Origin: Escherichia coli
GTDB lineage: Bacteria > Pseudomonadota > Gammaproteobacteria > Enterobacterales > Enterobacteriaceae
DNA: 64,000 nt
Reading direction: 5' to 3' (one strand)
NCBI RefSeq assembly: GCF_048403405.1
Contig: NZ_CP183129.1
Numbering within the stretch: position 1 is the first letter of the stretch; the number at the start of each line of letters is the position of its first letter. The position numbers are program-made. Of this stretch, positions 6,001 to 12,000 are shown piece after piece.

Positions 6001-9000
6001 GTGATTTTTGCAGAACAGCAAATTTATATACTGGGAGGGGAGAGAAAACCGGGGCTTCGTTCTGTTAGATCCTGGACGGGGGAGCTTTCGCATGATCGAA
6101 TTAAATGGTCTGAACTTCCACCAGTAGCTTCACCCGAGGGGGTGTCAGGAGCATATGCCTCTGTTATTGATGGAAATATCTTTCTGGCCGGTGGTGCATA
6201 TTTCCCGGGAGCGGCAGAAAAGTATAGCAATGGTGAATACTGGTCTCATAAAGGACTGGATAAAGCCTATTCAAAAGAGATATATCAGCTAATAAAAAAT
6301 GACTGGAAAAAAGTTGGTTCTTTGCCGGAAGGACTTGCTTATGGTGTAAGCCTGCCCTGGCAGGGGGGATGCTCATTCTGGGGGGGAGAAAAAAGATGGT
6401 AAAGCTGTTTCAGATGTTATTTATCTGAAAAAAAATGACAAACAAATAAAGATTGTTAAATAACTGTAATGCAGGTGACTGTATTAGTTGTTCAGTCACC
6501 TGAGTTATTTTAATGGGGTTTATAATGAATAAAGATAGATCTTTAAATGAAATGATGTTAAGCTTGTTTAATAAATCAACTATTGTTGACTTGTCAAGTG
6601 AGACAATATCTGAGAGTAAATCTCTTTCAGGCCGTATTTATCAGGATCCTGAACATAACGGGGAATTTGAACTTGATTGTGTATTGACAGATATTTATGC
6701 TCCTCAGTTAATTATTTTTTTACCAGATAAACCAAATGGAACAGGAATATTGATTATTCCCGGGGGGGCTACCAGGCTGTTATGTTAGATAAGGAAGGTA
6801 CAGCTCTTGCTCCAGAGTTTTTATCTCAGGGCTATACATTATTTGTTCTTAGTTACAGATTACCATCGCCAGTTGAGGGAGAAAATATAAACAAAACTTT
6901 TATTGATGCAATATCTGCAATGCTTTATATTCGTAAGAATGCTGATAAATGGCATCTACAGCGTCATCGTATTGGTGTATTAGGATTTTCTGCTGGGGGG
7001 CATATCGCCTCAACGTTTGTGAATCAGATTTGTGATTTCAAACGTTCTTCTGACAGTAAAGAACAAGAGATTTTCGCTATTCCCGATTTTGTCGGGTTAA
7101 TTTATCCTGTAATATCAATGAAAGATGATGTGACACATCCAGGCTCCAGGAAGCAATTACTGGGGGACAATAGTACCTCAGAAAATATAATACAATATAG
7201 TGCGGATCTTAATGTCACATCATGTTTTCCTCCTGTGTTTTTACTCCATTGTTGTGATGATGATCTTGTGTCAATTGAAAACAGTCTGCTCATGTACCGT
7301 GGCCTAATAGAGAAAGGTGTTTCTGCTGAAATGCATCTCTATGAGAAAGGAGGGCATGGTTTTAGTATTCAGTGGGCCACAGATCTTCCTGTTGGAGGAT
7401 GGATAAAACTGTTTATGGACTGGATGTATTCTCATGGATTTAAATAATATTTATGGTGACTACCTGGTGAAGCGTCGAGTAACTATGATGCTTCAATTCG
7501 TTTATAAAGGTGATTATACATTAGCTGTTCAGCTTTATCACAATCATGCTCTTTTATGGCCGTAAGTATTTCAATATGCTGCTGATGGGTTTTTTTGTTA
7601 TTTTCATATGTCATTTTATTCTTTTCCAGAGGTTTGGCCATTATCAGCCATTCAGAAAATGCTGAGTGTATTGTTTTTAATACTTTATTGTCAGGTATAT
7701 CAGCAAGTATACTATGAAATTCAATATCATATTGAGCATACACTTCGGGGGTTCTCAGTGAGTTATGATGGATACTGAGCACCTTCTCAAGCCTGTGAAT
7801 ATCCTCAGGCGTTGCATTTTTTGCTGCATATCTTACAAGGTTGGTTTCAAAAAAGATGCGTAGTCTTTCAAAATCCTTGATGCCATCAGCTGTAGATAAA
7901 AAATCTTTAACAATGCCTGATAACCCATTAATGATGGTTTCTGGTGATGGACGGCAGACACTGGCTTTTTCTCCCTTGTTATACCGGATTAGCCCTTTAT
8001 GTCTGAGAGATGATAAAGCCTCTCTGACAGATGGTCTTCCAACGCCAAAGAATGCCATAAGTTCACGTTCAGAAGGCAGGTATTCACCTTCCCTTATCTC
8101 CTCCTGGCGGATCATTCTTTCAAGCTCTTCGGCAACGATTTCTGAAAGTTTTTTTGTAACAATGGGCTTTCTGGTCGTTGTTAGCCCGGGTAACACGGTT
8201 TTTTTGTTGTCGGACATATATTGATTTATATGGATTAGAGCAAATGAGTTTTTAATTTAACACTTTCTTTTAATAATGAAAATATTTAATTAAATCTATT
8301 ATGTAAAGGGGGAATGATGTATCATCATGATTTTAATGAAAAAATAGGTTTCTGGTATGTGATAGCCCTCGCAGGACAGTCTAATGGTATGGCCTACGGT
8401 GAAGGTATTCCCCTGCCAGATACACTCGACAAACCCGAGTCCCGTGTAAAACAACTGGCTCGTCGAAAAACAATCACACCAGGAGGAAAAGAGTGTAAAT
8501 TCAATGAGATTATTCCGGCAGATCACTGCCTGCATGATGTTCAGGATATGAGTGGATATCACCATCCGGCTGCTGATTTGCATAAAGGGGAATATGGTTG
8601 TGTCGGACAGGGATTGCATATAGCTAAAAAGTTACTGCCATACATACCTGAGCAAGCAGGGATATTACTGGTTCCTTGTTGCAGAGGAGGTGCCGCCTTT
8701 ACTGTTGGAGCTGAAGGTATGTATGTACCTGATACAGGGGCAACAGCTGATGCAATGCGGTGGGGCACCGGAACAGCACTCTATGAGGACTTAGTAGCCC
8801 GGGTTAAGGTAGCTCTGGAATATAACAGAAAGAATAAACTGCTATCTGTCTGCTGGATGCAGGGGGAGTTTGATTCTTATGTCACCAGATTATGAAAAGC
8901 ATCCTGACTTGTTTTATCAGATGGTAACTTCTTTCAGGTCTGAGTTATCTGAATACTCATCTCAGTGTGTTGGTAATTCGTCAGAAAGAGTTCCATGGTT

Positions 9001-12000
9001 GTGTGGTGATACAACCTGGTACTGGAAGGAATCTTATCAAAAAGAATATGATTTTATATATGGACATTACAGACAACGGACTGATGATGAAATACATTTT
9101 CTCAGCTTTCAGGATAGTAACCGACATGAATTAACTAATGAGCCAGAAGAAGATGCCGATGATTTATCTGTCGGGTATCTGGGGTCATCATGGAGGACAG
9201 AATTAAGCTGGACAACGTCACAGAGAAGTACACATTTTAATTCAATGGCCAGAAGGGGAGTTATTGCTGAATGTTATGCGCAAAAAATAAGAAATTATTT
9301 GTAAACAAGTTCAGGATATATCTACAGCTCTGACATGATTCTCTGAGAGACATGACGGAGTGGCGGGGGCAGCAAGCCAGAACACTGCCTGACATGCTTT
9401 CATCAGACGCAGGTCCTCTCTCATATCCTCTGATTTACTCCAGTAAGGTGATGATCATATCTTTATTTGATAGTACGGTAATGCCAGATAAATACAGACA
9501 CAATGGTAAATAATATAGTTGCAAATAATGCTGCCATAATCAGCGCGATTGCGACACCTGTTTTCGATACCAGCGGCACCAGCAAAGCGCACAGTCCATA
9601 GCCAAGTGTGTGACTGGTAGCGAGCCAGCCCGCGCCTGCGCCATCAGCCAGCTTATCATTCAGTAGAAGTTGATAAGCGGGTGTTGCCAGAGCTGCTCCA
9701 AATGACAGCACTGCACAGCCCGGGTAAAACAACCATAGCTGTTCGGAGAGCATGATAGCCAGACCACCACTCATCAACACTCCGGCACTCAGGAGCAGGG
9801 CCACCGGAGTCAGGCGCTGCGGACGGAGTACCCCGAACTGCGCGATAAGCGCAGCTACTGCGGACAGACCCAACAGCCAGGCCACCTGTTGGCTAATGGC
9901 GGTGGTATCCGTGGCGAACTGGCGAGTAAGGGCAGGCGAAAGTCCAAGCTGCATCATGCTCACCGCCGCAGCCAGTAATATTGCGCAAAGCAGATAAGGC
10001 AGACAATCCCGCTTCAGACTGACGCTCTTGTACTCCGGTGTGGGCTGTGGTGGTGTGCCGGGCAACCGCAGCAGCATCAGCAGCGCCAGCACTGGGGCTG
10101 CCATCAGCAGCCCCAGTGGCGCCAGAGGATGAATGGCCAGCATTGCTGCCGCGCACAGCGGCCCGAATAGCCTGCCGCAACTCAGGCCGGAGCTGATGGT
10201 TGCCAGAGCGGCCATGCGATTCCCTTCTCCTGCTCTCTGCAATGCCCAGACCTGACAGGCTGGCACCATTGCCGACACGGTCAGCCCGTAGGCGATCCGG
10301 GCGATGATTAATATTCCCAGTCCCACCGCTGTTGTTATGGCGCTGGTAGCCATCAGCACGCTTCCCAGCCCTAGCAGGGTAAAGCTTATGCCATATCCTC
10401 CCAGAGCCCACAACACCACAGGTTTACTGCCAGTACGGGAAATTTGCTTTCCCCACCACGGGGACGATGGCAGAAACAGCATTGAGCCAAGCATCAGCAG
10501 GGCAGCCCATACAGACAGACTCAGATTTGTCTGTATGACCAGAACAGGGAGCACAACCAGCAGACCGTTCTGCCCGATACCGAGAAGCCCGGCACTGAAC
10601 GCAAGTGGCCAGCAGGACAGTGGTTTTTGGGGCGTATCTTCGATCCCAGGTGACATTTTAATGTTTCAACTCCATGTATTAATTGTGTTTATTTGTAAAA
10701 TTAATTTATCTGACAATAACATTTCTTATTGATAATGAGAATCATTATTGACATAATTGTTATTATTTTACTGTGTGGGAGCTGTTTGACTATGACCCTG
10801 CCCTCTGAAAAACCAGCCACAGATGTGGCTGCGCAGTGCTTCCTGAATGCACTGATTCGTGAAACCACAGACTGGAAACTGACAGAATACCCGCCAGACG
10901 AATTGATCATCCCGCTGGATGAGCAGAAATCGCTCCATTTCAGAGTGGCTTATTTCTCCCCAACCCAGCATCACCGCTTTGCATTTCCTGCACGTCTGGT
11001 CACGGCATCAGGCAGTTATCCTGTCGACTTTACCACTCTCTCCCGGCTTATTATTGATAAGCTACGGCATCAACTGTTTCTGCCCGTTCCCCTCTGCGAA
11101 ACTTTCCACCAGCGCGTGCTGGAAAGCCACGCCCATACGCAACAGGCAATTGATGCCCGTCATGACTGGACCGCCCTGCGTGAAAAAGCGTTGAATTTTG
11201 GCGAAGCTGAGCAGGCGCTGCTGACAGGACACGCTTTCCACCCTGCGCCTAAGTCTCATGAACCGTTTAACCGGCGGGAGGCTGAACGCTACCTGCCTGA
11301 TATGGCACCCCACTTCCCACTGCGGTGGTTTTCGGTGGATAAAACGCAAATCGCCGGTGAAAGTTTGCATCTCAACCTTCAACAGCGGCTGACGCGATTT
11401 GCCGCAGAGAATGCGCCTCAGTTACTCAACGAATTAAGTGACAACCAATGGCTGTTCCCGTTGCACCCGTGGCAGGGGGAATATCTTTTGCAGCAGGGGT
11501 GGTGCCAGGCACTTGTTGCTAAAGGGCTGATTAAAGACTTAGGTGAGGCCGGCACGTCGTGGCTGCCGACCACCTCTTCCCGTTCCCTCTACTGTGCCAC
11601 CAGCCGCGATATGATCAAGTTCTCCCTGAGCGTACGGCTGACCAACTCCATCCGTACTCTGTCCGTGAAAGAAGTGAAGCGTGGGATGCGCCTGGCACGC
11701 CTGGCTCAAACCGACGGCTGGCAGATGCTACAGGTCCGCTTCCCGACTTTCCGGGTAATGCAGGAGGATGGCTGGGCCGGGCTGCTCGATCTTAACGGCA
11801 ACATCATGCAGGAAAGTCTGTTTGCCCTGCGTGAAAATCTGCTGGTGGATCAGCCGAAAAGCCAGACCAACGTACTGGTCTCCCTGACTCAGGCCGCACC
11901 TGATGGCGGTGATTCGCTGCTGGTTTCGGCGGTAAAACGCCTGAGCGATCGCCTCGGTATCACTGTGCAACAGGCCGCCCATGCATGGGTCGATGCATAC

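Follow-up and report, generated by a model that had tools for sequence, protein, structure and literature searches.

The 64,000-base window analysed here (the whole stretch of DNA, taken from Escherichia coli contig NZ_CP183129.1) represents a pathogenicity island carrying iucABCD-iutA, sat, iha, pap and hly together with the accessory sialic-acid cluster nan-9, and it is the apparent frame breaks within this cluster, above all those in two of its three candidate sialate esterases, that are considered below. The cluster extends over positions 406..9304 (plus strand), as delimited by Pfam assignments, by the way in which RefSeq annotates this locus in strains CFT073 and DA33137 and by a published nine-gene description (PMC10088187). 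Its genes are, in order, nanA (406-1323), nanK (1357-2232), a nanT-like gene for a transporter of the major facilitator superfamily (2281-3753), esterase 1, an alpha/beta hydrolase (est1, 3757-4587), a nanC-like gene for a KdgM porin (4633-5343), nanM (5356-6463), esterase 2, the second alpha/beta hydrolase (est2, 6513-7447, plus strand), nanR (7483-8217, minus strand) and a paralogue of nanS (YjhS), placed by Pfam SASA in the SASA/SGNH sialate O-acetylesterase family (8317-9304, plus strand). This locus has been described before, as nan-9, and is not new; proteins identical to the nan-9 set have been annotated by RefSeq in CFT073, DA33137 and approximately 689 complete genomes, and a 3-kb region is matched at 99% or more in 787 complete genomes. 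The cluster has been reported as a human-associated accessory sialic-acid cluster of the extraintestinal pathogenic E. coli (ExPEC) lineages of sequence types ST131, ST73 and ST69 (Tiwari, van der Putten et al., BMC Biol 2023, PMC10088187), its deletion delays growth on Neu5Ac (N-acetylneuraminic acid) and Neu5Gc (N-glycolylneuraminic acid), and for its two alpha/beta hydrolases a role as sialate esterases has only been proposed (PMC10088187).

The first of these hydrolases, est1, regarded in the preliminary description of this DNA as the esterase that was kept, is uninterrupted, and it is identical to the CFT073 gene. The second, est2, is written as two open reading frames (ORFs), 6513-6788 (91 amino acids) and 6782-7447 (221 amino acids), which meet at a run of seven G residues (G7; 6762..6768, plus strand), the site of the frame break, where G8 is found in 672 of 689 complete genomes. 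Addition of one G to this run restores a 311-amino-acid protein, just as had been proposed, and this is equal to WP_001328061.1 except for C56R; the residual difference is due to the change at position 6678, where comparison with relatives reveals GATT in place of the Dam site GATC (6675..6678, plus strand; C to T at 6678, R56C in est2). The repaired protein matches Pfam BD-FAE (E=5.8e-20) and Abhydrolase_3 (E=1.8e-10), and its translation contains GFSAGG, a GxSxG nucleophile motif, as well as PGGGY. In its G8 form the tract, CCC GGG GGG GGC, encodes a P-G-G-G motif, which est1 encodes as CCT GGA GGT GGA, without a run; in both proteins this may be a putative oxyanion-hole motif. The G7 form is present in 17 of the 689 complete genomes, including EcN_Sk (the Nissle 1917 reference having G8), with the others differing from it by one base and each listed example of these being G8.

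The nanS paralogue (Pfam SASA, PF03629, E=3.7e-11) is likewise written as two ORFs, 8314-8895 (192/193 amino acids) and 8870-9304 (144 amino acids). The preliminary description had both esterase genes broken at G runs; both are indeed broken as written, and est2 is broken at its G7, but nanS breaks elsewhere, at an extra T within a Dam GATC site. The G5 run to which its break had been ascribed (8862..8866, plus strand) has its usual length and does not cause the break: G5 is found in all 14 related loci covering the site, the upstream frame runs correctly across it as CWMQGEFD, a conserved NanS motif, and an additional G at this point was ruled out as a repair as it yields WMQGGV followed at once by a stop. 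The frame requires the loss of one base rather than the gain of one. When the gene is aligned with its relatives, the lesion proves to be at 8872..8876 (plus strand), where the window reads GATTC and all relatives read GATC, the extra T being at 8874 or 8875; deletion of one T here gives a 328-amino-acid protein identical to WP_000274668.1. This extra T was found in none of 690 complete genomes, and the N-terminal NanS fragment that it creates was not found, in either of its two forms, in a collection of approximately 15 billion proteins, nor was the N-terminal fragment of est2. The 221-amino-acid est2 fragment, the 348-amino-acid NanM described below and the fragments of the broken pap gene and hlyC do occur in that collection and were traced to other noisy assemblies.

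A further gene of the cluster, nanM, is also frame-broken, through two G-run contractions that had not been mentioned in the preliminary description. Alignment with relatives shows both shortened runs within 6363..6386 (plus strand), namely G6 at 6363-6368 and G7 at 6380-6386, as against G7 and G8 in relatives, so that NanM as written has 348 amino acids and an altered tail and falls 21 residues short of 369. The same G6 and G7 pair is found in nine of the 689 complete genomes, and these are grouped by submission batch, five of them belonging to a single submission series; the pair is present in strain 446 but missing from strains 439 and 463, which have adjacent accessions and near-identical chromosome lengths. 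Upstream in nanM a synonymous C to T change gives GATT at 5463..5466 (plus strand) where relatives have GATC, a change also seen in C25 and Nord58.

Evidence on the origin of these breaks comes from comparing the whole window with E. coli DA33137, with which it is collinear over all 64,000 bases at 99.977% identity, the differences comprising nine substitutions and six single-base indels. All six indels fall in genes annotated as intact in DA33137 (two in nanM and one each in est2, nanS, a papJ-type gene and hlyC), and five of them lie in runs of at least seven bases, the one in nanS being at a GATC. The window's differences belong to two narrow classes of change. The DA33137 region has five G runs that are at least seven bases long, and four of these, both G8 runs among them, are one base shorter in the window; none of the 78 A runs of six or more bases (which reach nine bases) is changed, and one of 35 T runs is. 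That 4 of the 11 private changes should by chance lie within the 51 bases of such G runs has a probability of approximately 1e-10. Outside homopolymers, three of the six private changes are at the C of GATC, these being 5466 and 6678 (GATC to GATT) and 8874 (GATC to GATTC), for which the 165 GATC sites in the 64 kb give a probability of about 3e-7. Among the other private substitutions, 12639 is a change of GA to AA (the G before an A) and 47362 a change of A6CCC to A7CC at a run boundary; together with 5466 and 6678 these look like basecalling artefacts rather than single-nucleotide polymorphisms. The A at 12830 was rejected as a further private error, being a real and widespread IucB allele (G to A, Arg to Gln; 163 blocks of the protein collection), and this allele was used as a lineage marker with which to fetch same-lineage loci.

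In the same-lineage assemblies obtained in this way, which share the IucB allele, est2 and nanS are intact. Over 20.9 kb, OX030728.1 differs from the window at only seven sites, which are the three shortened G runs, the three altered GATC sites and position 12639, and it encodes intact NanM (369 amino acids), est2 (311 amino acids) and NanS (328 amino acids). The G7, G8 and G8 tracts, and GATC at all three sites, are found in OX030728.1, DA33137 and DAPRCG010000031.1 alike. In the nearest relative, Nord58, the est2 tract is G8 and nanS is free of the extra T. Nord58 is itself a noisy assembly, the only one of the 689 genomes with T at 6678, and it has GATC-site changes of its own at seven other sites (4993, 7382, 10642, 21081, 34648, 35179 and 57223) along with a G7-to-G6 contraction in papC and a broken hlyA. 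The annotation of C25 (NZ_CP127314.1) marks est2, iucD, sat and papC as frameshifted, and the same nanM G6 and G7, est2 G7 and T at 5466 occur there alongside approximately 100 other differences from the window. Many of these affect GGTCTC/GAGACC and GATC motifs, with repeated changes of GGTCTC to GGTTTC and of GAGACC to GGAACC, which suggests that a strain-specific methylated motif was miscalled throughout the C25 RefSeq assembly. Common descent with the window was ruled out as the source of the T at 5466 in C25, given those roughly 100 other differing positions and the many motif-linked changes. Several further assemblies show 10 homopolymer deletions within 5.6-6.7 kb. Identical changes thus occur in unrelated noisy assemblies while the nearest relative has different changes of the same classes, and this therefore argues for systematic error rather than inheritance.

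Taken together, the est2 and nanS breaks and the two nanM breaks are very probably consensus errors of the assembly and not mutations of the strain. The source would be an unpolished or only lightly polished long-read assembly, most likely produced by Oxford Nanopore sequencing, a platform that we infer from the kinds of change present. In such an assembly long G homopolymers would be called one base short, and bases beside the methylated A of Dam sites (G-m6A-T-C) would be miscalled, giving either GATC to GATT or a spurious T and hence GATTC. Nanopore consensus errors are known to concentrate at methylation motifs and homopolymers (Wick et al. 2019, PMC6591954), and methylation-induced errors have been described as mainly purine-for-purine or pyrimidine-for-pyrimidine, with the minimal motif RA/TY (Lohde et al. 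2024, PMC11610573); a paper on plasmid verification holds no direct statement on Dam-site errors. The connection of the GATC changes with Dam methylation is one that sequence context and E. coli biology would suggest. The real genome most likely has an intact nan-9, with all three esterase candidates and nanM. The preliminary description had itself allowed for this outcome, a fully intact locus whose breaks are artefacts, and that alternative is now strongly supported by the intact genes of the same lineage and by the two error-prone classes of change.

Several observations weigh against this explanation. Undercalling of runs is not universal, in that a G7 run (41880) and two C7 runs have kept their length in the window. 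The T at 5466, the T at 6678 and the nanM G6 and G7 are common to the window and Nord58 and could be read as inheritance. The est2 tract also varies in assemblies that are otherwise clean: a Logan contig from ERR13952723 equals DA33137 over 6.7 kb except for G7 in est2, and a Logan contig from SRR13992334 has G10. That each individual change is an error and not a mutation is moreover something that we infer from the letters of the sequence. Because of the two clean contigs, real slippage variants of the est2 G8 tract probably exist in nature, and in view of the changes that accompany it in the window it is unlikely, though conceivable, that the G7 is genuine in this strain; for the nanS insertion to be real is far less likely than that.

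One alternative to consensus error is that the mutations are real, est2 having been lost by slippage of its G8 and nanS by a 1-bp insertion, through the relaxed selection on O-acetyl-sialic acid use that had been suggested in the preliminary description. Such G8 tracts are prone to slippage, as the 17 complete genomes with G7 and the two clean contigs may illustrate, and the chromosomal nanCMS and nanRATEK could render nan-9 partly redundant (PMC10088187). Pseudogenes formed in this manner would be expected to differ from what is found, in that no sharing by descent was seen for the two lesions (the nanS insertion being unique to the window and the est2 G7 being absent from Nord58) and there is no sign of independent decay, the repaired nanS being the consensus allele and the repaired est2 differing by C56R alone, itself a GATC-site change. 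The nanS insertion lies within a GATC, as do two neighbouring private substitutions; both genes are intact in OX030728.1 and DA33137; and changes of the same types would cost the window nanM, a pap gene and hlyC as well. We therefore find the suggestion of relaxed selection unsupported, and real mutation of both genes improbable. A mismatch-repair mutator strain, in which the island would genuinely have gathered indels in homopolymers as well as G:C to A:T transitions, would accommodate the fact that 1-bp indels in runs make up half of the private changes and that each of the private substitutions at 5466, 6678 and 12639 is a G:C to A:T transition, but it leaves unexplained the targeting of the C of GATC, the insertion inside a GATC and the identical changes at 5466, nanM and est2 in the distantly related C25. 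It would also be unexpected for a repair-defective strain to have left all 78 of these A runs, of up to nine bases, unaltered, and this explanation is accordingly a very improbable one.

Two other possibilities concern est2 in particular. The tract may be genuinely unstable, slippage toggling the esterase off and on in natural ExPEC, in which case some of the public G6, G7 and G10 alleles would be real and possibly that of the window too; we consider this unlikely, though somewhat less so than the other alternatives to consensus error. Alternatively, the break may be real but harmless, the G7 allele still being expressed through slippage on the G run during transcription or at the ribosome. 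The long homopolymer at the break is what speaks for such expression, but 672 of the 689 genomes encode est2 in one frame with G8, the nanS break lies outside any run and would not be covered, and nothing examined pointed to recoding, with no search for recoding signals having been made; the chance of its being correct is close to negligible.

Elsewhere in the window, the papJ-type pilus-assembly gene is broken into ORFs of 70 and 123 amino acids at a G6 run (44778..44783, plus strand), which is G7 in DA33137, Nord58 and CFT073. The exact 70-amino-acid fragment is present on approximately 390 public contigs, and this tract is therefore very often variable or miscalled. The break in hlyC, a minus-strand gene, is at 58831..58838, where the plus strand reads T8 and relatives have T7, and it cuts HlyC at about residue 112 of 170; the resulting 112-amino-acid fragment was found on six public contigs. 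The cytochrome b/b6-domain gene at approximately 61380-61990 (minus strand) carries a frameshift annotation in each of CFT073, DA33137 and Nord58 and, unlike the private breaks, looks like a genuine conserved pseudogene. The alignment of the window with Nord58 stops at approximately 38380, where Nord58 has about 770 extra bases and an annotated IS1 transposase between papI and an IS3 remnant; this excess is taken to be an IS1 insertion that has no counterpart in the window or in DA33137. The possibility that the window is the original CFT073 sequence was ruled out, as it differs from re-sequenced CFT073 by approximately 165 substitutions, by another pap fimbrial-subunit allele at about 46000-46320 and by a 3-kb insertion sequence (IS).

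The distinction between error and mutation is of practical importance. If true, the breaks would leave the strain without much of a cluster tied to human ExPEC colonisation and would bear on the role of the two extra esterases, and the hlyC frameshift, if real, would make the strain non-haemolytic. Where an E. coli assembly was built from long reads only, neither a frameshift at a G run of at least seven bases nor a change inside GATC should be taken as biology. In this window the same classes of artefact would also give nanM, a pap gene and hlyC a false look of inactivation.

Compared with nan-9 as described previously (PMC10088187), the locus has the same nine contiguous genes (nanA, nanK, the nanT-like gene, two of acetylesterase/lipase type, nanC, nanM, nanR and nanS), a chromosomal location and IS remnants at its flanks, and differs in that three of the nine (nanM, est2 and nanS) are frame-broken by single bases, breaks that clean assemblies of the same lineage do not have. 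The repaired 328-amino-acid protein aligns over its full length with E. coli NanS (YjhS), the 9-O-acetyl-N-acetylneuraminic acid esterase of PDB 3PT5 (E=8.7e-125, with 56% of 322 aligned residues identical), and its GQSN serine motif and CWMQGEFDLM block are both preserved; in contrast to that enzyme, the copy in the window is a pathogenicity-island paralogue and putative esterase, not the core nanCMS copy, and is split by the extra T as written. The est2 gene resembles phase-variable contingency genes in having a G8 tract inside its coding region, with G6, G7 and G10 variants in public assemblies, and differs from them in that its variants are mostly found in visibly noisy assemblies, 97.5% of complete genomes are in frame, and the variation is one between assemblies. 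With nanopore consensus errors (PMC6591954, PMC11610573) the window shares length errors in long homopolymers as well as substitutions that fit the RA/TY motif, to which GATC to GATT conforms as a TY change and GATC to AATC would conform as an RA change, the difference being that neither publication names Dam GATC.

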